From NCBI GenBank assembly GCA_018819405.1, contig JAHJQF010000001.1, positions 371,277-435,276 of the forward strand: a stretch of 64,000 nucleotides of DNA, in the 5' to 3' direction. The notes under the pieces were generated by a model. It made no database searches and was not told where the DNA came from. It worked only from the letters and a program-made list of their open reading frames with translations. Source of the DNA: Patescibacteria group bacterium. GTDB lineage: Bacteria > Patescibacteriota > Patescibacteriia > UBA1558 > GWA2-36-10. Made by a program: the position numbers and the translations under genes. Positions 18,141 to 64,000 of this stretch are shown one piece after another (position 1 is the first letter of the stretch; the number at the start of each line of letters is the position of its first letter).

Positions 18141-18143
18141 GGC

Positions 18144-19465: not shown

Positions 19466-19565
19466 ATATTTGTTTTATTATTTGCACCCCCTATATCATA
19501 AATTTTTAAACTCATTAGAAGCTAGATTTCTAAATCGGTTTAATTGGGTGGGTATTTATATTTTA

Positions 19566-19602
19566 CCCCGCACCATTTTTTCCGTCAAAAAATGGTGCGG
19601 GG
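19566..19602. repeat. Perfect 16-bp inverted repeat (ccccgcaccatttttt / aaaaaatggtgcgggg) with 5-nt spacer, upstream of the recombinase
   Basis: Seen directly. Only a weak T-run follows, so it is not a canonical terminator; possible regulatory or recombination site. Confidence 0.6.
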
Positions 19603-19770
19603 TTTAGCATATTACGACACGTATATAATTAGCTTGTCTTATTATAGCATCTTGACTTTGTCCTTGAAAAATGTTAGTCTAAGCCCAGATAATTAATTAA
19701 TTTCCTAGTTCTTGGTTTGGCCTGACAACTAACTAGAGGCCTTACTAGGATGTAGGAGAAAGGACAATTT

Positions 19771-20118
19771 ATGTTAGATAAAAAAAAGAAGCAAAAGCTG
19801 ATTGAGAAGTATAAAACTCATAAAAGCGATACTGGTTCGGCTGAGGTGCAGATTGCAATTCTTACTGAAGAGATAAAAGAATTGACCAAACATCTTCGTG
19901 AACACAAAAAAGATTTTTCATCACGTCGCGGATTATTGGCTAAAGTATCTTTGCGTCACAAATTACTTCGTTATTTGGAGCGCGAAGATGAAAAGAGATT
20001 TAGCAAAATCATCAAAGCTCTGAGTTTGAAAATGGCCAAAAGAGAGAGATATGATATTTTGGAAGAAGTTCCAGAATTGCCAGAAGAAGAAACAGAAGAA
20101 GAGTCAGAAAAAGAATAA
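19771..20118 (+). CDS. rpsO: 30S ribosomal protein S15 with acidic C-terminal extension
   Basis: S15 signature HLREHKKDFSSRRGLLAKVSLRHKLLRYL. Structured leader upstream with nested stems (tcctagt...actagga, ggcct...aggcc) and SD aggagaaagga. Confidence 0.9.
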   Translation: MLDKKKKQKLIEKYKTHKSDTGSAEVQIAILTEEIKELTKHLREHKKDFSSRRGLLAKVSLRHKLLRYLEREDEKRFSKIIKALSLKMAKRERYDILEEVPELPEEETEEESEKE

Positions 20119-20128
20119 AATATAAAAA

Positions 20129-20153
20129 GCCCCGGAGCTCTCGGCTTCGGGGC
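20129..20153 (+). promoter_or_regulatory. rpsO-pnp intergenic stem-loop (possible processing/attenuation site)
   Basis: gccccgg...ccggggc hairpin without a strong T-run between the co-oriented rpsO and pnp genes. Confidence 0.35.
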
Positions 20154-20245
20154 TTATAGTTTAATAATAATTAAACTGATCGAGGGTTGATAGGTAAGCA
20201 TTAGATAGTTAGGTTTAGCTGTCTGGGGTTTGCCATATCAGCTCA

Positions 20246-22477
20246 ATGTCAGTGATAAAGGAGCATGATATGCAAGTTCAACAATTTAAGACCGAGGTGG
20301 CCGGTAAAGAGCTGGTCGTAGAAATCGGTAAACTGGCCAAACAGGCTCATGGAGCCTGTACTGTCACTTATGGTGAGACAGTGGTTTTGGCTACAGCTGT
20401 TACTTCAGGACAAGCTAGAGAGGGGGTAGATTATTTTCCGCTTATGGTTGATTATGAAGAAAAAATGTATGCAGCGGGAAAAATAAAAGGCTCACGTTTT
20501 ATCAAACGTGAAGGCCGAGCTACCGATGACGCAGTACTTACTGCCCGATTAATTGATCGTTCTATTAGACCGCTTTTTAAAGAAAGCGACAGAAATGATG
20601 TGCAGGTAGTAGTGACAGTTTTGTCTTACGATGGTGTCAATGATCCTGACTTTCCATCTATGGTAGCTACTTCTGTGGCTTTAGGAATTTCACCTATTCC
20701 TTGGAGCGGGCCACTGGCTGGTGTTCAGCTTGGGCGTATAAATGGTGAATGGGTTTTGAACCCTAGTGTTGAGGCTAAAACCAAAAGTGATTTGGATCTT
20801 TTTGTCAGCGGCTCAAAAGATGAGGTGATTATGATTGAAGCTGGTGCCAAAGAGACCAATGAAGCTGATATGTTTGAAGGTATTAGCTTTGCCGGCAAGC
20901 ACGTTAAGAAAGTTTTAGAATTTATAGAGGAAATAGTCAAAAAAATCGGTGTTTCAAAGCAAGTAGCAGAATTAGATTCTGAAAATGAAGAAATACGTGG
21001 CAAGGTCAAGGCCAAAGTAAATTCAGTTTTGGCTTCTCATGATTTGGCAGACTGTTTTAATCCTGACAAATCCAAAATGAAAGCTGCTATTGAAGCTGTT
21101 ACTGAAAAGGTGAATGAAGCTCTAAAAGAGGATAATGAAGTATCCAAAGACATGAGAGCTATGGGCGTAGCTATGATTGATGAAGAGCTTACCAAGGCTT
21201 TTAAAAAATTAGTTTTAGAAGATAAGAAAAGACCCGACAATAGAAAATTTGATGAAATCAGAGAACTATCTGCTGAAGTAGGATTGTTACCTCGTACTCA
21301 TGGCAGTGGATTGTTTTCTCGTGGTGAAACACAAGTACTTTCAGTAGTTACTTTGGGTTCGCCGGGAGATGAACAGACCCTAGACACCATGGAGGAGTCA
21401 GGCACCAAAAAATATATGCACCATTACAACTTCCCTGGTTATTCAGTCGGTGAAGTAAAGCCTTTGAGAGGCCCGGGTCGTCGTGAGATAGGCCATGGTG
21501 CTTTAGCCGAAAAAGCTCTAATACCTGTTTTACCAAAAGACGAAGATTTCCCCTACACTATCAGAGTTGTTTCTGAAGTTTTGGGCTCAAATGGGTCTTC
21601 ATCACAAGCTTCAGTTTGTGGATCCACGCTTTCTTTGATGGATGCTGGTGTGCCGATCTCCAAGCCAGTGGCTGGAATTGCCATGGGTCTTGTCCTTGAC
21701 GATGATGACAAAAACAAGTATGAAATTTTGACCGATATTCAAGGCATTGAAGATCATGCTGGTCATATGGATTTTAAAGTGGCTGGTACTAGAGATGGTA
21801 TTACAGCTATTCAGCTCGATATAAAACTCGGAGGAATCAGCTATGATATAGTTGAACAAGCTTTGAATAAAGCTAAAGAGGCTAGATTGAAAATTTTGGA
21901 TGTGATGAAGCAGGCTATCAGTGAGCCAAGGGCAGATTTGTCTCCTTATGCTCCTAGAATTACTACCATGCGTATTGATCCTGAAAAAATCAGGGATGTT
22001 ATTGGCTCGGGTGGTAAAATTATAAATGAGATTATTGATGCTTGCGGTGTTAGTATTGATATTGAACAAGACGGATTGGTGATGATTACCTCTACTGATG
22101 CTGATGGCGCCAAGAGAGCTCAAGAATGGATTGCCAATATTGTCAAAGAGCTAGAAATTGGCGAAGTCTATGAAGGTAAGGTAGTAAAGATTGTTACTGA
22201 CAAAAATAATGGTAGTGAAATAGGAGCTATTGTAGAATTGCTACCAGGTAAAGACGGTATGGTCCATATCTCACAAGTTGCTTATGAGAGAATAAATAAG
22301 ATTTCGGATGTAATAAATATTGGTGATATGGTCAAAGTCAAGGTAATGGATGTTGATAAAGAAAAAAATAGAGTAAGTCTTTCTATCAAAGATCTATTGC
22401 CAAAGCCAGAGGGCTACCAAGAGCCAAAAAAAGATTTTAAATCTAGTCCGCGTAGACCAAAATTCTTCAAAAAATAA
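20246..22477 (+). CDS. pnp: Polynucleotide phosphorylase (PNPase)
   Basis: Two RNase PH domains, KH and S1 domains (GEVYEGKVVKIVTD...), 743 aa; classic rpsO-pnp synteny. Confidence 0.95.
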   Translation: MSVIKEHDMQVQQFKTEVAGKELVVEIGKLAKQAHGACTVTYGETVVLATAVTSGQAREGVDYFPLMVDYEEKMYAAGKIKGSRFIKREGRATDDAVLTARLIDRSIRPLFKESDRNDVQVVVTVLSYDGVNDPDFPSMVATSVALGISPIPWSGPLAGVQLGRINGEWVLNPSVEAKTKSDLDLFVSGSKDEVIMIEAGAKETNEADMFEGISFAGKHVKKVLEFIEEIVKKIGVSKQVAELDSENEEIRGKVKAKVNSVLASHDLADCFNPDKSKMKAAIEAVTEKVNEALKEDNEVSKDMRAMGVAMIDEELTKAFKKLVLEDKKRPDNRKFDEIRELSAEVGLLPRTHGSGLFSRGETQVLSVVTLGSPGDEQTLDTMEESGTKKYMHHYNFPGYSVGEVKPLRGPGRREIGHGALAEKALIPVLPKDEDFPYTIRVVSEVLGSNGSSSQASVCGSTLSLMDAGVPISKPVAGIAMGLVLDDDDKNKYEILTDIQGIEDHAGHMDFKVAGTRDGITAIQLDIKLGGISYDIVEQALNKAKEARLKILDVMKQAISEPRADLSPYAPRITTMRIDPEKIRDVIGSGGKIINEIIDACGVSIDIEQDGLVMITSTDADGAKRAQEWIANIVKELEIGEVYEGKVVKIVTDKNNGSEIGAIVELLPGKDGMVHISQVAYERINKISDVINIGDMVKVKVMDVDKEKNRVSLSIKDLLPKPEGYQEPKKDFKSSPRRPKFFKK

Positions 22478-22496
22478 TTTTTAACTATAGTTTTTT

Positions 22497-23855
22497 GTGG
22501 ATTTTCTAAAATTAGTTCACAAAAGAGAACAAAAGGCAGATAATAAGATCATCTTTGGTCTGATCGGCCTTTTGTTTTTGATAGCTTTATTTTTTGTGCT
22601 AGTAAATTTTTTGCCAAAGAAAGAATATCGACCACTGTTTTCTTATTTGCCAGCGGATACAAATTTTTATTATCATTTTACAGATAAAAAAGTATTTTAT
22701 CAGGATATTTTGGAAGATTTTAAAATCTTTGATAGTTCGGTAGCCACTGACAAAGTAAAGAGTTTGGAGAATTTGTTGGGCGCCAGCTTTTTAAATGCCC
22801 GAGAAATAGTCTGGTTTAGGACTGATCAGTCAGATAGTGACAGTTATCTGATTAGATTTAGTCATTTACAAAAGAAAAGTCTGACACAAATACAAAATGA
22901 CCATTCCAATATGTATTTTTTTCAGGCTGACAATGATATTTTATTGGTTTCTTATTCGCTAGAAGTTTATAATGAATTTTTATCTAAAGAATATAAAGAC
23001 GAAATAGCTACTTCAAGGTCTCAGGGCTCTCAGGGTATTGATATGTATTGGCAACTTGGTCATTTACCAGAATTTTTGAATGATTTGATACCATATTTAT
23101 TTTCTATTTTTGAATCAGGCGATGCTTACGCCAATTTTTATAGAAAAGAAGACAATGGATTAGTCATCAATCTCTATGGTACTAGTCCTATACCTCGTGA
23201 TAGTTCTTTTTTTCAGTACAAAAGTCCACTCAAGCCAGATTTTGTCTTGGCATTTTCCAAATATACCCCTCAAGGCATTAAAAACTCTTTAGAAAATGAT
23301 CTTATTCGTTTAATATTTTCTAGCCTGCCTTATTATAATCTAAATTCACAGTCTATTGAGCAGGCTATCTTGAGTGGAGGAGTGATATTTCAAAGAGATG
23401 GTGCTTGGTTGATTGCCACTCCGCTTGATAGCTCAGCTATTATTTTAGATTTAGTAGATTATTATCAGGTGAAGGAACAAAAAAATACCTTATCTGACGG
23501 TACTCTATATATTGAGCTCTTGGCCAATGATAATCCCAATAAGATAGAATATAGCTATAAGGACAAAACATATTTTCAGGTGTCTAATGTTTTTGTTTAT
23601 CAAGAGGCGGGCATTAACTATCTGAGCAGTAACGAGGCTTTTGTTTGGGAGATTATAGAGCTTAGTCAGCCGCTGAGCAATTTATGGCTCAATTGTCAGC
23701 CAGAAGCAGGTCAAGTAAGTGATTTTATATATTTAGACACTAATAAGCTGGATAATGACCAAATTAAGGAATATTTGAGCAATAAAGGCGTAAATAAGCT
23801 ATGGGCTTTGTCATATTACACTGCTAGTCATGCTGGTTTGCAATTTTGTCTATAA
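22497..23855 (+). CDS. Hypothetical N-terminally membrane-anchored protein (452 aa)
   Basis: Single N-terminal TM helix; no recognised domain. Confidence 0.45.
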   Translation: MDFLKLVHKREQKADNKIIFGLIGLLFLIALFFVLVNFLPKKEYRPLFSYLPADTNFYYHFTDKKVFYQDILEDFKIFDSSVATDKVKSLENLLGASFLNAREIVWFRTDQSDSDSYLIRFSHLQKKSLTQIQNDHSNMYFFQADNDILLVSYSLEVYNEFLSKEYKDEIATSRSQGSQGIDMYWQLGHLPEFLNDLIPYLFSIFESGDAYANFYRKEDNGLVINLYGTSPIPRDSSFFQYKSPLKPDFVLAFSKYTPQGIKNSLENDLIRLIFSSLPYYNLNSQSIEQAILSGGVIFQRDGAWLIATPLDSSAIILDLVDYYQVKEQKNTLSDGTLYIELLANDNPNKIEYSYKDKTYFQVSNVFVYQEAGINYLSSNEAFVWEIIELSQPLSNLWLNCQPEAGQVSDFIYLDTNKLDNDQIKEYLSNKGVNKLWALSYYTASHAGLQFCL

Positions 23856-24511
23856 ATAGGCACCTCTTTACTGTAATATATGAAAATTTATTGCTTGCAC
23901 CGTAGAATGAACGAAGTGAATTTCTACGGTGTGGATAAGTTGTTGATATTTTGAAATATTTTTTTGGCTATTTGTCAAATTATATTTTAATATATTATTT
24001 TTTTATCTAAAATTAGCTAATATACGCCGTTGACTAAAAGCTCTAGATATGATATACTTAATATGTTCATAACTGATCGTTTACATCGTCAATTAAAGGA
24101 CTGAGCATTAATTTACAATTTAGTGACCAATCCTTTCCTCTCTACTGTTTTATCAACAATAAATTGGAAGGCCCTAACCCTTCTTCCAAAAACAAAAATA
24201 AAAACAACAAAAAGGACAATCCTCATTCATACAATGGAGATTAGATCCATAAGATGGTAGAGCGGGTGTGCTCTGAGTTAGGGATGAGCGTTGACAGAAC
24301 GCTTCTACATAAATAGTATTTGCCAATTTTTAACTTACAAAGAAAGTTCGACAAATCGTATGTATAAGCGCTAAAGGCGCACCAACCAGCCACATAACAA
24401 CAATTTGGGCACCGGACGTGCGCCTTTTTCATTTGCCAAAAAATCTTGATTTTTACCTATCAATCTGTTAATATTTAGGGGTATTTTTAAAGGGTTATTA
24501 ATTATAAATCT

Positions 24512-24874
24512 ATGAAAATGGACGCAAAATTTATAGAAGTAAGAAAAGCAGAATTAGAGCAGAGGAGACAGGATATTTTAAAAGAACTTGAAGCTGGTGC
24601 GGTCAAAGTAGCTGATAATGATTACAGTGCTAAGTTTGTTGATTTGGGAGACAAAGATGACGAGAATGCTGCTGAGGTAGCTATGTTTGAAAAGAATTTA
24701 TCTTTGGAAAAAACATTGGAAGTTTCTTTGTACAATGTAAATAGGGCACTTAAGAAAATAGAAGAGGGTAATTATGGGCTGTGTGAGAAATGTGGAGGAC
24801 CTATCAAGCCAGAAAGGTTAGAGGCTTTCCCATCAGCCACATCTTGTATGGATTGCAAAAAGAAATCATTGTAA
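24512..24874 (+). CDS. DksA/TraR-family C4 zinc-finger protein
   Basis: Coiled-coil N-terminus and C-terminal CxxC-x17-CxxC (CEKCGGPI...CMDCKK). Confidence 0.7.
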   Translation: MKMDAKFIEVRKAELEQRRQDILKELEAGAVKVADNDYSAKFVDLGDKDDENAAEVAMFEKNLSLEKTLEVSLYNVNRALKKIEEGNYGLCEKCGGPIKPERLEAFPSATSCMDCKKKSL

Positions 24875-25381
24875 ATGATCAAATATTTTGCCAGTTTAAT
24901 AGCTTTATTTGTTTTAGATAGAATAACTAAACTTTATTTTATAGAAAATCCATCTCTAGCAGGTGGTTTTCTTAGTTTGCATATAAATAAATATATTGCC
25001 TTTTCTTTACCACTTACTTATTTTATCCTCTATCCGCTTATATTTTTAATTTTGGTAATACTGTTTAGTTTTTGGTTGAAGAGCTTCAAAGAAAAAAGTA
25101 TTTTGATTTGGCCTTGGGGTATATTGATAATAGGATCAATCAGCAATTTGTTGGATAGATTCCGTTATGGCGGTGTAGTAGATTTTATCAATGTACCATT
25201 TTTTACAGTTTTTAATGTTTCAGATATTTATATATCATTGGCAGTAGTCTGGATACTTTGGCATAGCTGGTTTTATCAGCCAAAGCAAAAATCCCTAGCG
25301 ACTGGTCTTCGATTCCAAGGCGAGGCTTGGGACTCAGACTCAAGGCGCGGGCAGGTTGACAAAAAAAAATCGGAGTATTAA
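24875..25381 (+). CDS. lspA: Lipoprotein signal peptidase II (C-terminal ~35 aa extension is atypical)
   Basis: Conserved NLLDRFRYGGVVDFI and FNVSDIYIS motifs; 4 TM helices. Confidence 0.8.
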   Translation: MIKYFASLIALFVLDRITKLYFIENPSLAGGFLSLHINKYIAFSLPLTYFILYPLIFLILVILFSFWLKSFKEKSILIWPWGILIIGSISNLLDRFRYGGVVDFINVPFFTVFNVSDIYISLAVVWILWHSWFYQPKQKSLATGLRFQGEAWDSDSRRGQVDKKKSEY

Positions 25382-25603
25382 GATATTGATATCCAAGAAA
25401 AGTGATTTGAGAGTGTCCCGCTCTGCGGGATTGGCACGGTTGGTTTTTTGTTTGCCCTTCGGGGGTTGGGTAGGCTAAAAATTAATTTTTAAGTCACTTT
25501 TCTTGGGTTATGAAAAGTGATTTTTTATATTTATCTTGTTAGCAATTTAGTCCTTTATTTTTGGGAGTATAAATTATTGCTATGGTTTATTATTATAATA
25601 CTA

Positions 25604-27127
25604 ATGGGATCAAAAAAAATTTTTACAATTGCCCCTTTGGGTCTTAAAGGAGTACTGGTCGAGGTGGAAGCTAATTTATCTAGGCATTTGCCTAAAATAA
25701 TTGTAGTGGGTTTACCTGATGCGGCTGTCCAAGAAGCTAAAGAGCGTGTTTGGGCAGCTATTGAAAATAGTGGGCTTAATTTCCCTCGTCAAAAAGTTGT
25801 AATCAACTTATCACCAGCTCAGATTCGCAAAGAGGGAGGGTCATATGACCTACCAATAGCTATTAGTGTTTTACAAGCTGGCGGTATTTTATCAAGTATT
25901 GATGACAAGAGTGCTTTTATAGGAGAGCTGGCGCTGTCCGGTGAGCTAAAGCCTATACCAGGAGCTTTGGTAATGGCAACAAGTCTTAAAGACATGGGCT
26001 TTAGACAAGTTTATTTACCTTATCAAAATGCCAGAGAAGTCGCTATTATTGAGGGCATTGATATTTATGCGGTTAAAAAATTAGAGGATTTGGTGGAGCA
26101 TTTAAGTGGTCGACAAAAAATACAAGCCATTGAAAAAATAGATTTTTTACCGACAACAGCCAAAGCGTCTGTAGATTTTTGTGATATACACGGACAAGAA
26201 CAAGCTAAGCGAGTAATGGAGATTGCCGCCGCCGGCGGGCATAATATACTAATGGTTGGTCCACCCGGAGCTGGTAAGACAATGCTTTCGAAGGCATTTT
26301 TATCAATTTTACCAGAGCCTAGTTTGGAAGAAGCTTTAGAAACCAGTAAGATTTTTTCTTTAGCCGGCTTACTTTCTAATGACAGGTATTTGATTGACTC
26401 ACGGATTGTGCGGGCGCCGCATCATTCGGCCTCTGTTTCGGCTATAGTAGGTGGAGGCTCTTGGCCGCGACCAGGAGAAATAAGTCTAGCTCATAATAAT
26501 GTCTTATTTTTGGATGAGATATTAGAATTTCCTCGTCAGATATTAGAGGCCTTACGTCAACCTTTGGAGGATAAAGTAATTACTGTCTCCAGAGTAAAAG
26601 GTAGCTTTGATTTTCCGGCGAATTTTATTTTACTAGCCACCGCCAATCCTTGTCCTTGCGGATTTTTAACTGATCAGGAAAAAGAATGTAGTTGTAGTGA
26701 TTATGACGTCAAAAAATATCAAAAAAGATTGTCCGGTCCAGTGCTTGATAGAATAGATTTGCATTTTTTTGTCAATAAAGTGCAGACTCAGAAATTAGCT
26801 ATAGATACCAAACTAGCAGAAAGGTCTGAAGATATAAAAAGTAGAGTCATGAAAGCTAGAAAAATACAGGCGAGTAGATTTGGCCCAAATAATTTTAGTC
26901 TCAATGCTAATATGGATAGTAAGGATATAAAAAATTTTTGTGCCTTGTCTCTGTCTAGCCAAGATATTTTGCGGCAAGCGGCTAGAAAAATGAATTTATC
27001 AGCCAGAGCATATTTTAAAATTATAAAAACAGCCAGGACTATTGCTGATTTGGAAGCGCGGGATGATATAGAAGATCATCATATCTTGGAGGCTTTACAA
27101 TATCGGAGTAAAATTTTTGGGGATTGA
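25604..27127 (+). CDS. comM: YifB/ComM-family Mg-chelatase-like AAA+ ATPase
   Basis: Lon-like N-domain (VEVEANLSRHLPKIIVVGLPDAAVQEAKERV), Walker A GPPGAGKT, C-terminal ChlI-type region. Start moved to the internal Met at 25604. Confidence 0.85.
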   Translation: MGSKKIFTIAPLGLKGVLVEVEANLSRHLPKIIVVGLPDAAVQEAKERVWAAIENSGLNFPRQKVVINLSPAQIRKEGGSYDLPIAISVLQAGGILSSIDDKSAFIGELALSGELKPIPGALVMATSLKDMGFRQVYLPYQNAREVAIIEGIDIYAVKKLEDLVEHLSGRQKIQAIEKIDFLPTTAKASVDFCDIHGQEQAKRVMEIAAAGGHNILMVGPPGAGKTMLSKAFLSILPEPSLEEALETSKIFSLAGLLSNDRYLIDSRIVRAPHHSASVSAIVGGGSWPRPGEISLAHNNVLFLDEILEFPRQILEALRQPLEDKVITVSRVKGSFDFPANFILLATANPCPCGFLTDQEKECSCSDYDVKKYQKRLSGPVLDRIDLHFFVNKVQTQKLAIDTKLAERSEDIKSRVMKARKIQASRFGPNNFSLNANMDSKDIKNFCALSLSSQDILRQAARKMNLSARAYFKIIKTARTIADLEARDDIEDHHILEALQYRSKIFGD

Positions 27128-39763: not shown

Positions 39764-39840
39764 TCGTCCTGTAGCTCAGCTGGTTAGAGCACCACTCTTA
39801 TAAAGTGGGGGTCCTGGGTTCAAGTCCCAGCAGGACGACC
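39764..39840 (+). tRNA. tRNA-Ile with anticodon UAU (reads AUA)
   Basis: Manual fold: acceptor cgtcctg/caggacg with one G-U, D-arm gctc/gagc, anticodon stem ccact/agtgg with loop cttataa (anticodon TAT), T-arm ctggg-ttcaagt-cccag, discriminator A, encoded CCA. Confidence 0.8.
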
Positions 39841-39898
39841 AGATTGACATTTTATCCACTATTTGCTATATTTCTATCGTTAAATTTATTATCAAGAT

Positions 39899-39988: not shown

Positions 39989-40167
39989 TTTTTACCTGTC
40001 TACGGTAGGTAGGTATTTATTCAATAAAGAACCGTTTTTGCCTAGCGCGATTATTGTGGCATTAGCGGTTTTTTGTTAGGTTTAAAAGATAAAAAATCGC
40101 GCCCCCTTTTTCCAACATAGGATTAAGGGGGCGTTAGTATAGGCTGACCGCCTATTGTGTTGTAGAC

Positions 40168-40461
40168 TCAGGCCACCTTGGCCAGAGTAGGGTAGGAGGA
40201 GATCCTAGCCAAACCAGGGTCTTCAAACTGGACAGCAAAGTAGGAATCGGACATCCCGACCAGCCGGCCTTGTCTGATACCAGAAAGCCAGTAGATCCAG
40301 CGTATATCACCACGCTTGACGACCACGAAAGTGCGGCGTCCTTTGTGGATGATGGCCTTGCGTCCGGTTAGGGAATTGGTCAAGGTCAGGTCTCGGTGTA
40401 GGATAGCCGTTACGCGAGGCAGTTCCGGTAGGAGTTCTTGGAGTTTTTCCAGAGTAGACAT
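40168..40461 (-). CDS. Small basic protein, candidate RelE/ParE-like toxin partner
   Basis: 97 aa from internal ATG 40461 (MSTLEKLQ...). Segment RRTFVVVKRGDIRWIYWLSGIRQ resembles RelE/ParE-fold toxins (weak). Confidence 0.35.
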   Translation of the reverse strand: MSTLEKLQELLPELPRVTAILHRDLTLTNSLTGRKAIIHKGRRTFVVVKRGDIRWIYWLSGIRQGRLVGMSDSYFAVQFEDPGLARISSYPTLAKVA

Positions 40462-40465
40462 GAGT

Positions 40466-40708
40466 TTAGCTCCCTTCAGGCAGGCGAAGCAGCCGATTGA
40501 AGATGCTGGGGTCTTCGACAAAGCTTCGAATTTCACCAATCTGGTCAAGGTCGTAGTTGAAGTAAAGGGTGTAGGAGCCAGCTGGCAAAATGATGATTTC
40601 TTGGACTTGTCCGGTTATAGGGTCGATGACTTCAACACTGGTGTTTGTGTCCAGGACAATGGTCTTGGGATCAGCGAGGATTGACTGAAATTTTTCGGCT
40701 TGAGTCAT
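40466..40708 (-). CDS. Small acidic protein, candidate antitoxin of a two-gene toxin-antitoxin-like module (GC-rich island)
   Basis: 80 aa, pI acidic. Stop separated by 4 nt from the downstream basic ORF; SD aagggag for the downstream gene lies in its 3' end. Confidence 0.35.
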   Translation of the reverse strand: MTQAEKFQSILADPKTIVLDTNTSVEVIDPITGQVQEIIILPAGSYTLYFNYDLDQIGEIRSFVEDPSIFNRLLRLPEGS

Positions 40709-40978
40709 GACATTTTCCTCCTAGTGAAAAGAACAGATTTGAGCATAAAAAAATATTCCTTTTCAGGAATATTTAATTCACTCTATATAAATATTTTTTT
40801 CTTTGACAAATTCAGAACTGAGAAAAAATAAAAGCCCTTTATCGGGGGTCATTTTCTGATGATGGGCATATCTTTTTTTCATCTTTATAATTATAGCAAA
40901 AATAAATATTTGGTCAACTAGTCTTAAAATAAAGGGAAAATTGAAGCCCCCACCAAGATGTCTGTCTATAGTGGGGGC

Positions 40979-41176
40979 TCAAGCTTGGCCGGGGCTTAGT
41001 GATCCGTTTTGGATCAATTGGAGGTGCTGTCTCAGTGCTTGTTCAACTTCTTGGGCCGTTTCTTTCCGGCAGTAGAGGCGAGCTACATCAATCGCCGCAT
41101 GTAGGGTTTTTTCATCGGGTAGGGAGTAAAAGTTTTGGATAGCCATGGCCATGAGTTTGGCGCCGTCTTCTTGCAT
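40979..41176 (-). CDS. 65-aa hypothetical protein with canonical SD and sigma70-like promoter
   Basis: SD ggaggtga 4 nt upstream of ATG. Promoter TTGACA (41266..41261) -17 nt- TATAAA (41243..41238) on minus strand. Confidence 0.4.
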   Translation of the reverse strand: MQEDGAKLMAMAIQNFYSLPDEKTLHAAIDVARLYCRKETAQEVEQALRQHLQLIQNGSLSPGQA

Positions 41177-41306
41177 GGTTTCACCTCCTTGAGGTTTCGA
41201 GTTAAGGACAGGGCGGAGAAAAATAGAGTAATATTTATTTATAATATTAATATTGGTATTTGTCAAGAAAAGGAAGGCCGCCCGACTAGAAGCCGGGCGG
41301 CTATGT

Positions 41307-41657
41307 TTAGGAAGCATTGACAGCCTCTTCGGCATCATTGTCTTCCGATACGTCCTCGGTAGGTGTGAGTTGTGGCAGCAACTCCAGGACCTTGAGAGGC
41401 ACGATGGAAACCCTGAGACCAGGGTAGTCTTTTTGGGTGGAGGCCCAAATCCAGCTGGTTATAGATTGGCCGACCATGCGACCTTGGTCAAGCTCTTTCT
41501 TGATGACCAAGAGGTCATGAGGAAAGATAGTAGGATCTCCTGGATTGGCTATCCTGACCAACTTGTAAGTACCAGCGGCGTAGACTATTGGTTTCCCCTG
41601 GATAAGAGGGCTTGGGAACAGGGTATCCTCCTCTGTGGAAAAGTCTATGAGGTTCAT
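41307..41657 (-). CDS. 116-aa hypothetical protein (strand choice uncertain in GC-rich DNA)
   Basis: Co-oriented with all other island genes and protein-like composition. The overlapping plus-strand ORF 41253..41687 is the alternative. Confidence 0.3.
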   Translation of the reverse strand: MNLIDFSTEEDTLFPSPLIQGKPIVYAAGTYKLVRIANPGDPTIFPHDLLVIKKELDQGRMVGQSITSWIWASTQKDYPGLRVSIVPLKVLELLPQLTPTEDVSEDNDAEEAVNAS

Positions 41658-41965
41658 CGGGTGATGAGCAACGAGGGTGAAGATTAAGTGCTTTGCGACG
41701 TTGCCTCCGTGCTAGAGAAGTGAGTGAGGTGCGAGTGGCGGGGGGATATATTTTTATTATACACAAAAAATAGGATAAGGGAAATTTTTATAATTTTTAT
41801 AAAAAGAAAGCCGCCCTGGAACGTTTGGCGTTCCAGGGCGGAGGGAAAAACAAGGTCAGCTAGCTTGTACGTATCTAGGACTTGTTTTCGAATTGGCTGG
41901 GGTTGAAATCAACAACCACTATCAGTCGTTGGGGGAGATGGCAGATTTAGTATAATAGTTCCTTT

Positions 41966-42592
41966 CTAGACAGGGTAATTACCTCTGAGTCGGAGCCACT
42001 CTTCACGACCTTTGGGGCGTATAGCTTCGGAGCCGGCCAGACACAAGGGACAGTCCTGAGGTTGCCAGGTGTCAATCTGGGGAGCGATCAAGCTGATGAT
42101 CTTACGACCATCCAGATCAGATAATCCCGATCGGTTGACCAGCGCTAGAATGGTATGGCTCACAATCCCGCCTGCTTCGCTTATACCGGCGATGCTCTGG
42201 CGGGTGGTTTTGCCAGTAGTCATGACATCTTCAACCATTAGTACCCTGGTGCCAGGCTTCAGTGGAAAGCGTTTGAGCAACATCTGGTTGTCAACCTTTT
42301 CGGTGAAGCCGGCTTCCTTCTCCATACTCAGAGCCAGTTGGTAGGCCAGAGTGACGCCGCCCATGGCTGAACCAATAACCATATCATATGGACAATTGTG
42401 TAGCCAGTTGGCCTGATTGGCCAGGTGCCAGCAAGCCTTTTCCAGTAGAGCAGGGTTGCGGATAATTAGGCTACAGTTGACAAAGCCGTTGGAGTGCAGT
42501 CCACTGGTCAAAAGAGCGTGGGGACGCTGAGGATTGTTGTCGTGGAGCCACAGGGCACCGGTTTGTTTGAAGACTTCCAGCCACATGAACAT
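41966..42592 (-). CDS. Orotate phosphoribosyltransferase-like PRTase (PyrE family), in GC-rich island
   Basis: PRPP loop VLMVEDVMTTGKTTRQSIAGISEAGG and DMVIGSAMGGVTLAYQLA segment are collinear with PyrE. Confidence 0.6.
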   Translation of the reverse strand: MFMWLEVFKQTGALWLHDNNPQRPHALLTSGLHSNGFVNCSLIIRNPALLEKACWHLANQANWLHNCPYDMVIGSAMGGVTLAYQLALSMEKEAGFTEKVDNQMLLKRFPLKPGTRVLMVEDVMTTGKTTRQSIAGISEAGGIVSHTILALVNRSGLSDLDGRKIISLIAPQIDTWQPQDCPLCLAGSEAIRPKGREEWLRLRGNYPV

Positions 42593-42679
42593 GATTTAGC
42601 CTTTCTGTTGGGAGTGAACTATTTTTGACAAGCTAGCGCCTTGTCTGTTTTTCGGACTAATTTTTCTATATTTAATGAT

Positions 42680-49947: not shown

Positions 49948-51528
49948 ATGTTTGAAACTTTTCAAAATCATAATCAAGCAAGTCAAAGTCCAGATAATAT
50001 AAAAAGGTCCCCTGACAATCCTATACCTAACATGCCTAGGTCCGAGCCGTCTACGCCAGTCAAAGGCAAAAATAAATTATGGATAATGATAGTGGCTATT
50101 ATTTTGTTAGTAATTTTGGGACTTGGCGCTTGGTGGTATTATGCTTATGGTCAGGCCATAATGTTAGTCAAAGATGTGTCTTGGAGTTGGGGTAGTACTG
50201 GTATGGAAAGTTATCAGCAGAATATTGATATGTCTTTTAACATAAAAAATCAAAATGAAGCCAACAAAAATATATCTATGATGAGTTTTTTTGGTAGTAA
50301 TTTTGATTTGACTATTAATTCATCGCAAGCTTATCTTGGTTCTGATTCGGAAGGGAGCATTTTTTTGTCAGTTTCAGACAAGAGCAAAATAAATTATCAA
50401 ATAGATTTGGAATCAAAAAAAATAAGGGAAAATCTTTATTTTAAGACAAATTGGCAAGATTTAGAAACAGCCTTGATGGGTTTTGTAGATTTTAGTAGTT
50501 TGCCCGATGATGCTTGGTTTGAGATTCCTATTGATTTTGTCAAAACTCTTAGTGGCAAAATACCTGAAGATACAGAAATAGATGATCAAAAAATAGCCGA
50601 GATAAATCAAAAAGTAGATGAGTATTTGCAGAAAATAAAAAAATCCAAAATATTTCAAGTCAAAGATACTCACCAGACAGTTGAGACTCCACAAGGAAAT
50701 TTAAAAAAGATAGAATTGATTTTAAAAGCTAACAAATTATCCGACTTGATTCTTTTATCTATAGATATGCAATTAGATGTGAATACATCGCTTTATTTAA
50801 ATACTGACAAAGAAGTTGTCAAAGCCGAGATGATAAATAGTTTTGAAAAATTCAAAACAGAAAAGCCAGATGAGTGGGCAAACATCAAAGGATATTTGGA
50901 CCATATAAAGATCTTTGTTTTGATAGACGATAAAACAAAAAATATAGGTGGGTTTGAGATTTATGTAGATAATTTAGGTATCAAATCAAAAAGTTATAAT
51001 ACTTTGCTAAATGGGCAACTGAAATATTTGATGTATTATGTTGAGCCTTATCCGGTCATTACGCCACAAAATATAAAAACTCTTGATGAGTTTTTGAACG
51101 GTTTTGGTGGCAGCACAGGTGTGTTGCCAGATACAGATGATACGGATGGCGATGGATTAACTGATTATGAAGAATCAGTATTGGGCACAGATCCAAATAA
51201 TCCAGACACAGATGGTGATGGTTATAGTGATGGACAGGAAATGGAAAATGGCTACAATCCTTTGGGCGATGGTCAGATATTTGAATATGGTGATCAATTG
51301 TCAGATTTAGCCATAAGACAGTGTCAGGATGGTGGTGGTGTCTTTCAAAATAGAGAAGAAGAAATATCATGTAGCTTTATTGATAGTCAAACAGATTGTC
51401 AGGCTGTAGCAGGTTGTTCATGGAATGAGCCTGGTTATTGTCAGGAGGTAGAATCATGGTGTGTTTGTGAGGATGGCAAAAAATTATATCTTTCTCCACA
51501 GGGTATTTTTGAAGAAACATGTAATTAA
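49948..51528 (+). CDS. Membrane-anchored protein with thrombospondin-type-3-like Ca-binding Asp repeats and Cys-rich C-terminus
   Basis: DTDDTDGDGLTDYEESVLGTDPNNPDTDGDGYSDGQE; C-terminal multi-Cys module; N-terminal TM. Confidence 0.5.
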   Translation: MFETFQNHNQASQSPDNIKRSPDNPIPNMPRSEPSTPVKGKNKLWIMIVAIILLVILGLGAWWYYAYGQAIMLVKDVSWSWGSTGMESYQQNIDMSFNIKNQNEANKNISMMSFFGSNFDLTINSSQAYLGSDSEGSIFLSVSDKSKINYQIDLESKKIRENLYFKTNWQDLETALMGFVDFSSLPDDAWFEIPIDFVKTLSGKIPEDTEIDDQKIAEINQKVDEYLQKIKKSKIFQVKDTHQTVETPQGNLKKIELILKANKLSDLILLSIDMQLDVNTSLYLNTDKEVVKAEMINSFEKFKTEKPDEWANIKGYLDHIKIFVLIDDKTKNIGGFEIYVDNLGIKSKSYNTLLNGQLKYLMYYVEPYPVITPQNIKTLDEFLNGFGGSTGVLPDTDDTDGDGLTDYEESVLGTDPNNPDTDGDGYSDGQEMENGYNPLGDGQIFEYGDQLSDLAIRQCQDGGGVFQNREEEISCSFIDSQTDCQAVAGCSWNEPGYCQEVESWCVCEDGKKLYLSPQGIFEETCN

Positions 51529-59527: not shown

Positions 59528-60319
59528 ATGGACGAAAATTTTGAACTAAATCAATTACAAAAAAATCAGGATTTAAACAATCAAGTTTTGCCAGAAAATG
59601 TCCAGGCGAATTTGGAAAATCCTACCAATAAAAAAAGTTTGCGCGGTAAATTTTGGTTATTTTTTGTGTTTAGTATTTTTTTATTATTGATAAGTGGATC
59701 GCAGATTTATAAAAATTTGATTGAGCCAGTCAAATATGACACTCCTGATTGGCTGGATAATCAATTGAGTCCTGATGAAGAAGCGACTAGGACTATAGCC
59801 GAGCTAAAGGAAAATGATACAGATGGGGATGGTCTGACAGATTATGAAGAAAAGTATCAATATTATACTAGTATGTTTTTGGAAGATACTGATAGTGACG
59901 GCTTTACTGACTCTGAAGAAGTAGCTTTGGGGAATGATCCGCTTTGTCCACATGGGCAGTCCTGTAATCTTTTGAGACTCATCACACCCAATACTAAATT
60001 GGCCGATATAATTGAGCAGGTCAATGTTGACCCAGATATAACAGTCCAAGAGGCGGCTGTGTCTGAATTTAGGAATTTTCTCAAAGAAAATGGTATGCCG
60101 CAGGAAGACCTAGATGCCCTGACAGATGAGGATCTTCTAAATATTTTTAGAATATTTGATCAGAGTAATATTTTACCCGAAAATGCTTTGTCCAATGATC
60201 CTACTCCAGATGAAGTCAGACAGTTTTTATTGACCCAACCAGGAGCCGATCCAGCAGAAATAAACGCTTTGAGTGATGAGGAATTATTGGGTATAGCCCA
60301 AGAATTATTAGCAAGATAA
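59528..60319 (+). CDS. Membrane-anchored protein with TSP3-like Asp repeats (paralogous in style to 49948..51528)
   Basis: TDGDGLTDYEEKYQYYTSMFLEDTDSDGFTDSEE; N-terminal TM helix. Confidence 0.5.
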   Translation: MDENFELNQLQKNQDLNNQVLPENVQANLENPTNKKSLRGKFWLFFVFSIFLLLISGSQIYKNLIEPVKYDTPDWLDNQLSPDEEATRTIAELKENDTDGDGLTDYEEKYQYYTSMFLEDTDSDGFTDSEEVALGNDPLCPHGQSCNLLRLITPNTKLADIIEQVNVDPDITVQEAAVSEFRNFLKENGMPQEDLDALTDEDLLNIFRIFDQSNILPENALSNDPTPDEVRQFLLTQPGADPAEINALSDEELLGIAQELLAR

Positions 60320-60353
60320 TTATTATATTTTTGATAAGAATAAAATATAAGAT

Positions 60354-63300
60354 ATGGCAAGTTATAAAAAAATAATTTTTTCCCTAGTTCTAGTTTTTGT
60401 TACTTTTACCGGTCTATCTTTGCCGCGTCCAGCGGATGCTTTTATTGTATCGGTGGCCCATGATGTCACCGGAAGTCTAAAATGGATTTGGGATAAAGTA
60501 GAGAAAGTTTATGATACTGTCCAGGGCATTGTGGGTGCTGAATTATCAAATAAGACGGTGGGAATGTTTATGGATAGTCTGGCCTATGATGTAGCCACTG
60601 AACTAGCAACTGGTGCAGCCGGAGGTAAACCATTGTTTCGGACGACCTCTATAAAACAACATTTACAAAATGCTCAAGATAAGGCTTTTGGTGAATTTTT
60701 GGGTGAGCTTACTACCAAAGGTTTTGATGAATTGGGTATAAATCTTTGTGATCCTTCTATTGATGTCAAATTGACGCTTACCTTAGCTTTGCTTGATGAG
60801 CAAAAACCGCCAAAACCAAAGTGTGATTGGCGTAATGTCCAGAGAGAATGGAAAAATTTTGAAAAAGAAGTGCAATCAGATATTGTAAAGTTTCATCTTG
60901 ATCCGAAAAGATCAGGGACTGACAGCACCAAAGAATTTTTTCAGGGTTTGATGGATCCTGAAAATAGTGACTTGGGCGCCTTAATAAAATTGGAGACGAC
61001 TGTCAACAATAAAAAAATAGAAGCTAAAGAGGTGGAAGAACTATCTGCTTCTGAATGTCAGGGATTCATAGACAAAGCTACAACTGTTATAGAGGCTGTG
61101 AAAACTCACTGTAGTGTAGCTATGAATATGTCGGAAGAACAATGGGATTCGGCTGTTGAAAACTCAGCTAAAGCCATAGCAGCTAGAAAAGAGGCAGCTA
61201 CCAATAGGAAATTGTCAGATATTTTAAAAGATGCCGGTAGTCGTTTTGTTGATACTTTTACTTCCAAACTGATGAAAGAATGGATAAAAGACGGTATGTG
61301 GTCTTTATTTGGTGGTAAGAATAATAATGCAATAGTAGGAGATGATCTATTAGCTAGATTAAGGGGTGGTTATGATTTTTTGCAGCCTAGGGGTCAGGAT
61401 TTATTTAAAGACCTTAAAAAAATAAGGATAGAAAAAATAGAATCTTTTGATTATCTCAATGAATTTGCAATTTGTCCAAGTCAGTTTAAAAAACCAGACA
61501 ATTGTGTGATGAGTCCAGCTTTTTTACAAGCGGTAAATTCTCAGATGACTTTGAAACAAGCTATAGAAGATGGTGTAATTGACGGGCAGACTCCTTTGAT
61601 TGGGCCAAATGATCCACTCAATCATAGCACTGAAAAATGTTATCGTGATGGTTTGTGTTATGGTAATTTAGTCAAGCTCAGAAAAGCAAATATTGTACCA
61701 GTTGGATGGGAATTGGCAGCTATTCGTGGCCCAGTCAGTTTACAGCAGGCTATGGATTGTTTTGAAGAATCATTAGATTGTCGTTTTCCTATTTCAGATA
61801 AGTTTGCCGTAGATGGTAATCAACACAATCCTTTTTATCATTTGATAGATCCGGATTGGGTTCTCAAAGCACCTAGTGTCTTATGCGATGCCTATGTCAA
61901 TTCATCTGTTTTGGAATCTTCAGACAGTAGTAATCGTCAACAATATTGTGCTGATGCCAAAATTTGTTTGCGTGAAGATGATGATGGTAATTGTCTGGAT
62001 GGTCAATACGGATATTGTACTAGGACAGAAAATATTTGGCGTTTTGAAGGCGACAAATGTCCAAGTGGTGATATTTACGCCGGTTGTTTGACTTTTAAAA
62101 ATGAAGATTTGGGAGAGTTTTCTTATGTTGAAGATAGTCTTGATTATTGTACTGCTGATCAAGCGGGTTGTCGCAGGTATTCCCAAGAAAAAGACTTTGA
62201 AGGCAATTGGATATTAGATGATATCAGATATGATGATAATGATTTATTTTTGAATAAACAGGCAAATATCTGTAGCTCGGATCAGGCTGGTTGTGATCAA
62301 TATATATTAATGGCTCCTGATCTTGGTGTTAATCTAGTTCCCAATAGTGGTTTTGGTGACATCAATGATGACGGAACTCCTGATGGCTGGTCTTCAGTAG
62401 GTTTTGATTATAATGGCGATAGAATTGCCAATGGTTATGCCTATGGTGGTGGATTGGGAGTTGATTTGATGCAAAGAGTAGAGCTTTTGCCAAATACCAT
62501 GTACCAAATTTCAGTGGACATGGAGCAATATACTCCTGAAAGTACAGACCAAGGCAGAATCACTATGCATCTTTGCGATGCCTCTGGTACTTGTGGTGAT
62601 ACTAGTATTGGCGGGGCTATAGAGGAGCTTACTACTTGTGACATCGGATATGATGGACACCCAAACAATATAGACCTTCTGTCAGTACCGTCTCAAGGAG
62701 CACAAAGAGCCAAGTGTACATTTATGACCAATGAAAATACTAAAGGTGGTCAGATTAATATTTCATCTGAAAATCCTGTGGCTAGTTCTGTTATTTGGTT
62801 TGATAATCTAAAATTAGAAATTGTCAGCTCTTCAAACAGTTCATCTGTTTATACACCTTATGGACAAGGCGGTTATGTTTATATGGATAGCGGACGTTTT
62901 ATGTGTCTTGAAAAAGAAGTTGGTTGTCAGGGCTATACTCCTATAAATGGAGACCCAATGATACCAGCAGTTATTAATTCTGGTGATCTTTGTCCAAATG
63001 AATGTGTTGGCTATGATACTTTTTCTGAACAGCCTGATTTGTTTGATATTATGGAGGGTGATACGGATGTGAGGTATTTTAATTTCATACCAGATACAGC
63101 TAATTCATGTCCTGAGACTGCAGTTGGTTGTGAAGAGTTCACCAACCTTGATGTATTAGCCGAGGGCGGTGAGGGTAGAGAATATTATACATTCCTTCGC
63201 CAATGTGTGCCTTCGGAGTTTGGGGCGGCTTATTATACTTGGGAGGGTAGTGACGTGGCCGGTTATCAAATCAAAACTTGGTATATCTTAGAAAGTAATA

Positions 63301-64000
63301 TCAGCGATGCGCCTTGCACTAACATAGATCCTCATGGCACTGATTGTCGTGACAATGTCAGTATTGCTACTTGTGATGTCTCAGAGTTGGATACAAACCC
63401 AAATTGTCGCCAGTTCTTTGATCAAGACGGAGACTCTCATATGCGTTTGCAGGATAGGGTAGTATTTGCCAGCGATAACTGTCATGACTATAGACGTACT
63501 TTGACCGGTACAGAATATAGCGGTTTGCCGTCAGAAAGTATTTCTTGTACGGCAGCCAATAATAATTGCCGATCATATTATGGTAATAATGCCAATAATA
63601 TACGTATGTTATTTATTGATAATTTTGAAGGTGGTACTTATTCCCCGTGGGGAGATGGAGATCCGGGTATTATTGATTTGTCTTCAGAATCATTAAATGA
63701 CGGTGGTCATTCTTTGAAGCTTGCCACAGGGCATAGCCATGGCAGAAATATGGTTGACGAAGTTATAAAAAATAACAAAGAATATCAGGTCTCCTGGTGG
63801 ATGAAAAGCAGTGTGTCATTGAGTGATTTTAATATTCGCCTATTTTTGGAGGATGCCAATAATAATACATTTTTAGAAAATTTGAATGACGCAGAAGATA
63901 CTGATTTGTTTAATATTGAAGCTGGTAACTGGCATTATTATACTATTTCCAAATATCTGGATATATCTAGTTTGGACATGGATAATATTGATAGCCAGGC
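60354..64000 (+). CDS. Giant secreted cysteine-rich surface protein, 5' portion (at least 1215 codons; runs off the window end); absent from the supplied ORF track
   Basis: I read every line from 60354 to 64000 in frame and found no stop; the first in-frame upstream stop is 60348-50. Signal peptide MASYKKIIFSLVLVFVTFTGLSLPRPADA. Repeated CxxxxGC modules (CPSGDIYAGC, CTADQAGCRRY, CSSDQAGCDQY, CLEKEVGCQGY, CPETAVGCEEF). Two CBM_4_9-like segments (PNSGFGDINDDGTPDGWS... and IDNFEGGTYSPWGDG...GGHSLKLATG...YQVSWWMKSS). Confidence 0.8.
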   Translation, partial: MASYKKIIFSLVLVFVTFTGLSLPRPADAFIVSVAHDVTGSLKWIWDKVEKVYDTVQGIVGAELSNKTVGMFMDSLAYDVATELATGAAGGKPLFRTTSIKQHLQNAQDKAFGEFLGELTTKGFDELGINLCDPSIDVKLTLTLALLDEQKPPKPKCDWRNVQREWKNFEKEVQSDIVKFHLDPKRSGTDSTKEFFQGLMDPENSDLGALIKLETTVNNKKIEAKEVEELSASECQGFIDKATTVIEAVKTHCSVAMNMSEEQWDSAVENSAKAIAARKEAATNRKLSDILKDAGSRFVDTFTSKLMKEWIKDGMWSLFGGKNNNAIVGDDLLARLRGGYDFLQPRGQDLFKDLKKIRIEKIESFDYLNEFAICPSQFKKPDNCVMSPAFLQAVNSQMTLKQAIEDGVIDGQTPLIGPNDPLNHSTEKCYRDGLCYGNLVKLRKANIVPVGWELAAIRGPVSLQQAMDCFEESLDCRFPISDKFAVDGNQHNPFYHLIDPDWVLKAPSVLCDAYVNSSVLESSDSSNRQQYCADAKICLREDDDGNCLDGQYGYCTRTENIWRFEGDKCPSGDIYAGCLTFKNEDLGEFSYVEDSLDYCTADQAGCRRYSQEKDFEGNWILDDIRYDDNDLFLNKQANICSSDQAGCDQYILMAPDLGVNLVPNSGFGDINDDGTPDGWSSVGFDYNGDRIANGYAYGGGLGVDLMQRVELLPNTMYQISVDMEQYTPESTDQGRITMHLCDASGTCGDTSIGGAIEELTTCDIGYDGHPNNIDLLSVPSQGAQRAKCTFMTNENTKGGQINISSENPVASSVIWFDNLKLEIVSSSNSSSVYTPYGQGGYVYMDSGRFMCLEKEVGCQGYTPINGDPMIPAVINSGDLCPNECVGYDTFSEQPDLFDIMEGDTDVRYFNFIPDTANSCPETAVGCEEFTNLDVLAEGGEGREYYTFLRQCVPSEFGAAYYTWEGSDVAGYQIKTWYILESNISDAPCTNIDPHGTDCRDNVSIATCDVSELDTNPNCRQFFDQDGDSHMRLQDRVVFASDNCHDYRRTLTGTEYSGLPSESISCTAANNNCRSYYGNNANNIRMLFIDNFEGGTYSPWGDGDPGIIDLSSESLNDGGHSLKLATGHSHGRNMVDEVIKNNKEYQVSWWMKSSVSLSDFNIRLFLEDANNNTFLENLNDAEDTDLFNIEAGNWHYYTISKYLDISSLDMDNIDSQ

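Follow-up and report, generated by a model that had tools for sequence, protein, structure and literature searches.

A giant cysteine-rich secreted protein family of Patescibacteria and its possible role in cell contact

Patescibacteria account for a large share of bacterial diversity and apparently live attached to other cells. To our knowledge, the molecules that make this contact are known only for Saccharibacteria. In one Saccharibacterium, a type IV secretion system (T4SS) and glycan-binding surface proteins are both essential for epibiotic growth (PMC10633639). The T4SS of Patescibacteria resembles the conjugation machinery of monoderm bacteria, with VirB4, TrsD, PrgI, VirB6, and VirB2-like pilins, and no PrgB-like adhesin has been detected for it (PMC12102498). 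The same survey reports KsgA and recG as frequent neighbors of virB4, places recG near the T4SS in class ABY1, and notes that monoderm T4SS loci often encode large VirB1-type wall hydrolases; its text makes no mention of carbohydrate, a carbohydrate-binding module (CBM), TSP3, or a giant protein. Finally, large cysteine-rich extracellular proteins occur in Peribacteria, where they are multicopy and strain variable and where a role in attachment has been suggested (PMC4736985). Here, we describe a giant gene that begins near the end of a 64,000-nucleotide (nt) stretch of a Patescibacteria contig (JAHJQF010000001.1, positions 371,277 to 435,276, hereafter the window) and that encodes a cysteine-rich secreted protein. 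We searched the literature for a prior description of its family and found none, the nearest accounts being PMC4736985 and PMC12102498.

Our results reveal that the giant gene is real, intact, and strongly conserved and that it encodes a very large exported protein. We propose that this protein is an extracellular, glycan-binding contact protein that is tethered by a co-encoded membrane protein with TSP3 repeats and that possibly serves as the contact arm of the Patescibacteria T4SS, a reading to which we give slightly less than even weight.

The giant gene and its exported product

An earlier reading of the window, made from the sequence alone, had noted a frame that stays open from the ATG at 60354 to the window's end and that is missing from the accompanying list of open reading frames (ORFs). 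Translation agrees with that observation, as there is no in-frame stop in the 1,215 codons between 60354 and 64000. From the base composition of the window, the probability that so many codons would remain open by chance is ~4e-40. The frame is missing because the list skips ORFs that are still open where the source sequence ends, which is essentially the cause that had been suspected. An in-frame TAA at 60348-60350 makes the ATG at 60354 the earliest possible start, and the next start candidate is a TTG at 60420. Furthermore, the GC content at codon positions 1, 2, and 3 is 0.48, 0.39, and 0.28, a coding-like pattern that fits a gene in a genome of 36% GC.

The true 3' end lies outside the window and was found in the public record. 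The full product, GenBank MBU1202842.1 (P0017; [quoted passage not shown]), has 2,906 amino acids (aa), and a profile search matched its residues 1-1215 to the window translation with 100% identity over 100% of the query. Of the gene's 8,721 nt, the window therefore carries only the 5' 42%. It follows from the same record that the gene is not unannotated, as the sequence-only reading had assumed, although its entry as a hypothetical protein leaves it uncharacterized. Orthologous ORFs of 2,500-3,400 aa are found wherever the contig permits among 80 species-representative loci. When the aligned window part was compared with the ortholog at locus L085 (71% aa identity), the proportions of synonymous and nonsynonymous differences were 0.67 (pS) and 0.19 (pN). 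The resulting pN/pS of 0.28 indicates that the giant gene is under purifying selection and, along with the codon-position bias and the homologs, supplies the coding signal by which the earlier claim could be judged.

An argument could be made that the frame is an artifact, that is, a chance-open frame or a decaying gene. In its favor is an in-frame TGA at 10233-10235 in the L001 ortholog, which comes from one Logan assembly and in which the gene is called as 1,894 aa plus 877 aa. However, a second assembly, L026, has a single difference from L001 in 8,331 nt, with GGA (Gly) replacing TGA. Because the two are otherwise identical, the TGA is probably a point error or a nonsense variant. We considered UGA read-through or recoding in the L001 protein (P0003; 1,894 aa, then the in-frame 877-aa ORF) and rejected it given the GGA in L026. 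The TGA-GGA difference coincides with the UGA-to-Gly substitution of genetic code 25. Set against a single-base difference in one assembly are the vanishing chance of an open frame of this length, 1,153 clusters of related proteins, intact ORFs in dozens of species, and the low pN/pS, which leave an artifact or pseudogene with a negligible probability.

The product is almost certainly a genuine secreted giant protein. Its N-terminus, MASYKKIIFSLVLVFVTFTGLSLPRPADA, precedes a phenylalanine at the predicted cleavage site and has the n-, h-, and c-regions of a Sec-type signal peptide: a basic KK n-region, a hydrophobic stretch, and an AxA-type signal peptidase I site within a P-x-P-A-x-A c-region that is kept in homologs. 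In a hydropathy scan, the only hydrophobic 19-mer of the whole protein was at aa 5-25. We looked for a second transmembrane (TM) segment and for an LPxTG-like motif and found neither. Inspection and hydropathy are thus in accord with the signal peptide that had been read from the sequence, and cleavage is predicted to leave a mature protein of ~320 kDa with an isoelectric point (pI) of 4.3.

The second hallmark of the protein is its cysteine content. There are 110 cysteines (3.8%), of which 39 are in the window part, and 76 of the 110 are conserved at 90% or more among 35 diverse homologs. In addition, the number of cysteines is even in 105 of 110 full-length homologs. The even counts and the conservation are therefore strong indirect evidence that all cysteines pair in disulfides, as in a disulfide-rich extracellular protein. 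Some of the cysteines belong to a recurring module, for which at least five repeats had been claimed. We found five strict copies of C-x(4-7)-GC-x2-[YFW], at aa 569, 599, 640, 851, and 919, four of them with C-x5, whereas 2,000 residue shuffles yielded 0.04 copies on average and never more than 2. A looser copy lies at aa 1065, and further variants occur beyond the window. The cysteines of the window copies are invariant across the family, and in the three modules at aa 569-650, cysteine and glycine together are invariant in 35-66 homologs. The module was matched by no model among those searched, and the Myxococcus-type cysteine-rich repeat models of Pfam and NCBIfam had no match to the giant protein. 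AlphaFold modeling of these three modules, which had been suggested as a check for the modules, was run but yielded no confident or usable model, with a predicted local distance difference test score (pLDDT) of <50.

Family distribution and domain architecture

Homologs of the giant protein come exclusively from Patescibacteria, which agrees with the earlier suggestion of an origin in the candidate phyla radiation (CPR). Their records are labeled Komeili-, Uhr-, Kerfeld-, Falkow-, or Nomurabacteria or Parcubacteria, and relatives were found in at least 558 GTDB species genomes among those scanned. A profile of aa 355-660 recovered 1,153 representative proteins (50%-identity clusters) among 1.84 billion. 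Matches at E ≤1e-30 numbered 1,050, and only 19 fell between E 1e-10 and 1e-3. In the listed matches, the core domain sits at approximately residues 350-700 of giant proteins, and shorter matches look fragmentary. Taken together, these results describe a family that is specific to its lineage, has sharp boundaries, and shows one architecture throughout. Its members are publicly labeled only as "hypothetical" or "carbohydrate binding domain-containing." Many third-party annotation (TPA) assemblies titled "uncultured Gammaproteobacteria bacterium" (L007, L010, L012, and others) show the same locus order, and their labels are evidently wrong.

Table 1. Coordinates of the giant gene, the parts of its product, and the two genes for TSP3-repeat proteins in the window
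Feature	Position	Strand	Basis or remark
Giant gene, 5' part (codons 1-1215 = 42%)	60354..64000	+	Stop-free frame, runs past window edge
Sec-type signal peptide, aa 1-29, predicted cleavage after PADA	60354..60440	+	Hydropathy scan, sequence inspection
N-terminal alpha-helical region, aa 38-355; conserved C132, C157; motif LAYDxAxxIAxGGxGxKPLF	60465..61418	+	
Core domain, aa 365-555, alpha+beta, most conserved of family	61446..62018	+	10 invariant Cys
Three C-x(5-8)-GC-x2-[YF] modules, aa 569-581, 599-609, 640-650	62058..62303	+	Regular expression and shuffle control
First CBM_4_9-like module, divergent, aa 656-844	62319..62885	+	Ortholog matches, family profile
Cys-rich linker, aa 845-1084, modules at aa 851, 919, 1065, motif TWEGSDxxGYQ	62886..63605	+	Invariant columns
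Second CBM_4_9 module, aa 1085 to ~1262, cut by window end at aa 1215	63606..63998	+	Pfam
Partner protein, 263 aa, single-pass membrane protein, two TSP3 (Ca-binding) repeats, 2 Cys	59528..60319	+	TSP3_bac E 8e-11
Second TSP3-repeat membrane protein, 526 aa, Cys-rich C-terminus (DCQAVAGCSWNEPGYCQEVESWCVCEDG)	49948..51528	+	TSP3_bac E 3e-14

CBM_4_9 is the only Pfam family found in the giant protein (Table 1), and a search of NCBIfam gave nothing meaningful. The second CBM module matches PF02018 at aa 1089-1176 (34.2 bits versus a cutoff of 25.9, E 4e-8), a match that spans only profile positions 7-101 of 136. In the ortholog P0003, the same module covers positions 4-128 of 136 with an E of 1e-11, and the family profile finds a PDB chain here, 4xup (Endo-1,4-beta-xylanase C), at E 2e-4. 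The case for the first module is less direct. The window's own copy (aa 656-844) has no Pfam match at E 0.01, but PF02018 was matched by 25 of 60 orthologous segments (best E 1e-7), and it is by transfer from these orthologs that the region was provisionally assigned to the CBM_4_9 family. The family profile weakly matches CBM4 and related CBM structures in this region (laminarinase 1gui, E 0.04), and an hhalign comparison of the first module with the second returned an E of 0.01. Two CBM_4_9 regions had been predicted from the sequence; the second is thus upheld in the window itself and the first only through its orthologs. This family profile spans 2,572 positions, and its PDB relatives were only chains of CBM-bearing or glycan-active enzymes.

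Conservation is distributed unevenly along the protein. It peaks at aa 400-700, 800-1100, and 1200-1400 and is lowest in the CBM modules and, above all, at aa 2000-2500. Specifically, mean column identity is 0.32 at aa 701-800, within the first CBM module, and 0.53-0.64 in the cysteine-rich linker (aa 845-1084), which had no match in Pfam or the PDB. Beyond the window, there are more cysteine-rich conserved regions, the hypervariable part at aa ~2000-2500, and a conserved C-terminal domain. The low conservation of the CBM modules and of aa 2000-2500 is as expected for ligand-specific regions.

The most conserved part of the family is the core domain. Our AlphaFold2 models covered aa 1-660 and were confident for the core, with pLDDT values of 76-96 (aa 365-555) in the first model and 72-94 (aa 366-504) in the second; the N-terminal region (aa 38-355) was helical and of low confidence. 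PDB sequence searches that started from the protein itself or from a profile of its core returned nothing useful, and no relative of aa 365-555 was detected, whether in sequence or in predicted fold. Invariant residues of the core include K441, R443, G451, E453, D499, and W502. The invariant Glu and Asp raised the idea of a lysozyme-like or VirB1-like core, which no search backs.

More generally, the core could be a new catalytic module, targeted by CBMs as in cellulases and xylanases, which would make the giant protein a secreted enzyme that degrades polysaccharide or peptidoglycan. Glycoside hydrolases are the usual carriers of CBM4/9/22 modules, the sole PDB relatives are such enzymes, and the confidently modeled alpha+beta core has invariant Glu (E453), Asp (D499), Arg, and Trp residues. 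Large VirB1-type wall hydrolases, moreover, are frequent in monoderm T4SS loci (PMC12102498). Yet, 2,900 residues and ~55 disulfides far exceed the needs of an enzyme, and the invariant residues of the core are equally explicable as structural. On this evidence, an enzymatic function appears quite improbable.

Neighboring genes and the proposed role

Upstream of the giant gene, the order M23/LysM, LeuRS, (MFS), Sua5, MFS, KsgA, TSP3 protein, giant gene is kept. In 81 of 84 loci, the gene directly 5' of the giant gene encodes an ortholog of the 263-aa TSP3 partner, at a median distance of 14 nt. The two genes are 34 nt apart in the window, and no terminator-like site lies within this interval. 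The sequence-only reading had placed two membrane proteins with TSP3-like repeats beside the giant gene, which is true of the partner. The 526-aa protein is not beside it because it is encoded 8.8 kb upstream with six genes between, although L004 and L085 have counterparts at the corresponding place.

This setting, one conserved locus per examined set of loci by KsgA, Sua5, and LeuRS in at least 558 species with a gene for an M23/LysM wall hydrolase conserved nearby, is what may be expected of a structural scaffold of the envelope. In such a scenario, the disulfide-stapled protein would organize or span the wall or a surface layer, the ligand of its CBM-like modules would be the wall polysaccharide or peptidoglycan of the same cell, and a Ca-dependent membrane anchor would be provided by the TSP3 protein. 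Strong purifying selection and the acidic pI of 4.3 point in the same direction. Nevertheless, typical S-layer proteins are known to be free of cysteine, neither an SLH (S-layer homology) domain nor any other wall-binding domain was found in the giant protein, and the hypervariable aa 2000-2500 suggest an outward-facing, diversifying surface. We therefore regard a scaffold as improbable, if somewhat less so than an enzyme.

The downstream side was read from a contig, L086, that belongs to the same organism as the window because its first 546 residues equal aa 2361-2906 of the full product (P0017). There, genes for a 1,040-aa VirB6-like protein, a 419-aa protein, a methyltransferase (- strand), and an IS200-type transposase (- strand) come after the 3' end of the giant gene; next are rpsF, ssb, rpsR, efp, and genes for a 438-aa protein, PrgI/VirB3 (E 7e-10), a TraC-like protein, and a VirB4-like ATPase (P-loop_TraG, 2.5e-20). 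Thus, in the same genome, the PrgI/VirB3-TraC-VirB4 core lies 8.4 kb downstream of the giant gene, and 5-7 kb separate the VirB6-like gene from the PrgI and VirB4 genes. The same order of giant, VirB6-like, and T4SS genes is repeated in L085 and in L087, where the giant protein is 44% identical and recG comes after the T4SS. The transposase gene, of the IS200/Y1 type (7221-7796 of L086, between the VirB6-like module and rpsF), is absent from that place in L085 and L087.

In many lineages, including a Komeili-like clade and several distant ones, the giant gene is followed by a gene for a polytopic protein of 800-1,250 aa and then by one for a soluble protein of ~415 aa. With tblastn, we detected this polytopic protein, whose 7-9 predicted TM segments are at the N-terminus and precede a long charged tail, in 36-38 of the loci examined. 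Among 15 polytopic orthologs, 5 match the Pfam family TrbL/VirB6 (PF04610; best E 9e-8). In the window's genome, the N-terminal 455 aa of the VirB6-like protein, its TM part, are 37% identical to the L087 copy (weak TrbL match), and the protein is assigned to this family through that likeness. The 413-419-aa and 438-aa neighbors gave no family in our searches, and PADLOC models had no match for the giant, TSP3, VirB6-like, or 413-aa protein. A more distant genome, L002, differs in detail at 15617-25610: two more large secreted proteins (1,073 and 1,304 aa), with FN3/Pur_ac_phosph_N, Big_7, and weak CBM_4_9 matches, are encoded after the giant, and the VirB6-like gene comes after them (tblastn match at 22918-23880). 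We considered whether the in-frame ORF downstream of the L002 giant gene could be a fusion with it and rejected this, as the ORF starts from an ATG of its own and encodes its own signal peptide, which marks it as a separate gene.

Based on this arrangement, a candidate mechanism can be outlined. The giant protein would be exported via the Sec pathway, lose its signal peptide, and undergo oxidative folding outside the cell, with the formation of ~55 disulfides. The C-x5-GC disulfide modules may then act as rigid connectors, and the two CBM4/9-type modules as variable beta-sandwich units. Having neither an anchor nor a sortase signal of its own, the protein could be retained at the surface by the single-pass, Ca2+-binding TSP3 membrane protein, so that the CBM-like and hypervariable parts would bind glycans or some other surface ligand on a partner cell. 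The giant protein is a candidate contact or adhesin arm of the T4SS because the VirB6-like gene follows directly and the PrgI/VirB3-TraC-VirB4 core lies downstream. Action at the cell surface in binding or contact is fairly probable; that the protein works with the T4SS is possible, yet doubtful. In its most explicit form, the proposal would make the TSP3 and giant proteins, joined by the VirB6-like and 415-aa proteins in loci that encode them, the extracellular arm that is still missing from the T4SS. This arm would be a ~320-kDa, disulfide-stapled, Ca2+-tethered, wall-crossing device whose variable CBM-like and hypervariable modules recognize glycans of the host cell. It would dock the VirB6/VirB4 translocon there, with aa 365-555 as a new apparatus-specific fold. 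We consider this complete version unlikely, though worth stating.

Several observations weigh against our proposal. The T4SS role is drawn from gene neighborhood alone, the VirB6-like copy of the window's genome has no Pfam match at E 0.05, and between the VirB6-like module and the VirB4 core there are 4-5 kb of unrelated genes (the methyltransferase, the IS200-type transposase, and rpsF-ssb-rpsR-efp). Two Uhrbacteria-type genomes keep KsgA-TSP3-giant with no VirB6 or T4SS gene within 10 kb downstream. About 90% of the giant protein, including its most conserved domain, is without a recognizable relative, and an enzymatic or structural role is therefore possible. The first CBM-like module is below Pfam significance in the window copy. 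Finally, adhesins seldom show such strong conservation or stay at a single fixed locus. With one locus by housekeeping genes in at least 558 species, 76 of 110 cysteines conserved at 90% or more, and a pN/pS of 0.28, the protein is a poor fit to a typical fast-evolving adhesin.

Alternatively, the giant protein could be a stand-alone adhesin for attachment to the host, essentially the attachment factor that the sequence-only reading had suggested, with CBM modules that bind host glycans and with a VirB6 neighborhood that reflects nothing but inherited gene order in an origin-proximal, housekeeping-rich region. The CBM_4_9 modules and the secreted, cysteine-rich architecture would serve such a protein equally well, and the Uhrbacteria-type loci hold the TSP3 and giant genes without VirB6 or a T4SS nearby. 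There is also precedent in the attachment role proposed for large cysteine-rich CPR extracellular proteins (PMC4736985) and in the glycan-binding adhesins that are essential in Saccharibacteria (PMC10633639). However, the strain-variable proteins of PMC4736985 fall far short of the giant family in both conservation and constancy of position. Furthermore, a VirB6-like gene lies directly 3' of the giant gene in L044, L051, L062, L064, and L080, whose giants are 27-30% identical to that of the window and thus as far from it as those of Uhrbacteria. The linkage therefore looks ancestral. Attachment in general is plausible and finds partial support here; a stand-alone adhesin strikes us as unlikely, even as the strongest of the alternatives.

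In the lineages where it occurs, labeled Komeili-, Uhr-, Kerfeld-, and Falkowbacteria, the giant family ranks with the largest and most strongly conserved proteins. Its pairing with the TSP3 protein and its place beside VirB6 and near VirB3/VirB4 make it a concrete candidate for a host-contact element, that is, for the adhesin reported as undetected in the published T4SS survey (PMC12102498). Should the protein instead be a structural or enzymatic part of the envelope, it would still mark a major and unexplored cell component.

Two other features of the window were observed along the way. At 40000-42600, the GC content is 0.45-0.55 against a background of 0.36, beginning ~160 nt past tRNA-Ile(TAT) (39765-39841). 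Between 40000 and 41900, all ORFs are shorter than 150 aa and Rfam gave no match at E 0.1, and a GC-rich 208-aa ORF occupies 41966-42592 on the - strand. This stretch may be a foreign or decayed insert by a tRNA gene or an undescribed RNA. The window also contains a second surface apparatus, a type IV pilus cluster at 6289-14130, which encodes a PilB-type ATPase (6289-8019), PilC (8023-9264), a 636-aa LVIVD/beta-propeller protein (9746-11656), and small ORFs that are possible pilins.

Comparison with known systems

In terms of homology, the closest described relatives are the CBM_4_9 modules of glycoside hydrolases, such as CBM22 of Clostridium thermocellum Xyn10C (4xup) and CBM4 of the Thermotoga maritima laminarinase (1gui), which two modules of the giant, each of ~180 aa, match or resemble. 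This likeness is the sole recognizable homology in 2,906 aa. Unlike the enzymes of 4xup and 1gui, the giant protein is without a catalytic glycoside hydrolase domain, and its modules are embedded in a cysteine-rich giant. As to surface layers, Pfam finds no SLH or other S-layer anchoring domain in the protein.

In terms of context, the nearest counterparts are PrgB, the aggregation substance of pCF10 and a surface adhesin of a monoderm conjugative T4SS, and TraN of F-type systems. TraN is a cysteine-rich stabilizer of mating pairs that works with the VirB6-like TraG. Like both of these, the giant is large and extracellular, and its gene has a VirB6-family gene as neighbor and VirB3/VirB4 close by; like TraN, it is cysteine rich. 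It may share their role in cell-to-cell contact, a functional analogy that is suggested by gene context. Searches revealed no LPXTG anchor and, in Pfam, no PrgB or antigen I/II domain, and TraN had no Pfam or NCBIfam match in the giant. In contrast to PrgB and TraN, the giant is two to five times larger and is chromosomal and vertically conserved rather than plasmid borne.

Within the CPR, the cysteine-rich proteins of Peribacteria (Anantharaman et al. 2016, PMC4736985), compared here by description, share with the giant their origin, a signal peptide, size, a high cysteine content, and a proposed role in attachment. Yet, they are multicopy, form a 14-gene cluster, and contain 7% cysteine, whereas the giant has one conserved locus, 3.8% cysteine, and fixed TSP3 and VirB6-like neighbors. 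The MPF-FATA-like T4SS of Patescibacteria (Quinonero-Coronel et al. 2025, PMC12102498; Wang et al. 2023, PMC10633639) occupies the same neighborhood of KsgA, VirB6, PrgI, VirB4, and recG, and PMC12102498 names neither the giant nor its TSP3 partner as a component. The giant protein thus joins the large, multimodule surface proteins of bacteria that carry CBM modules, and what sets it apart are an orphan core and a position in a T4SS neighborhood that had previously gone unremarked.

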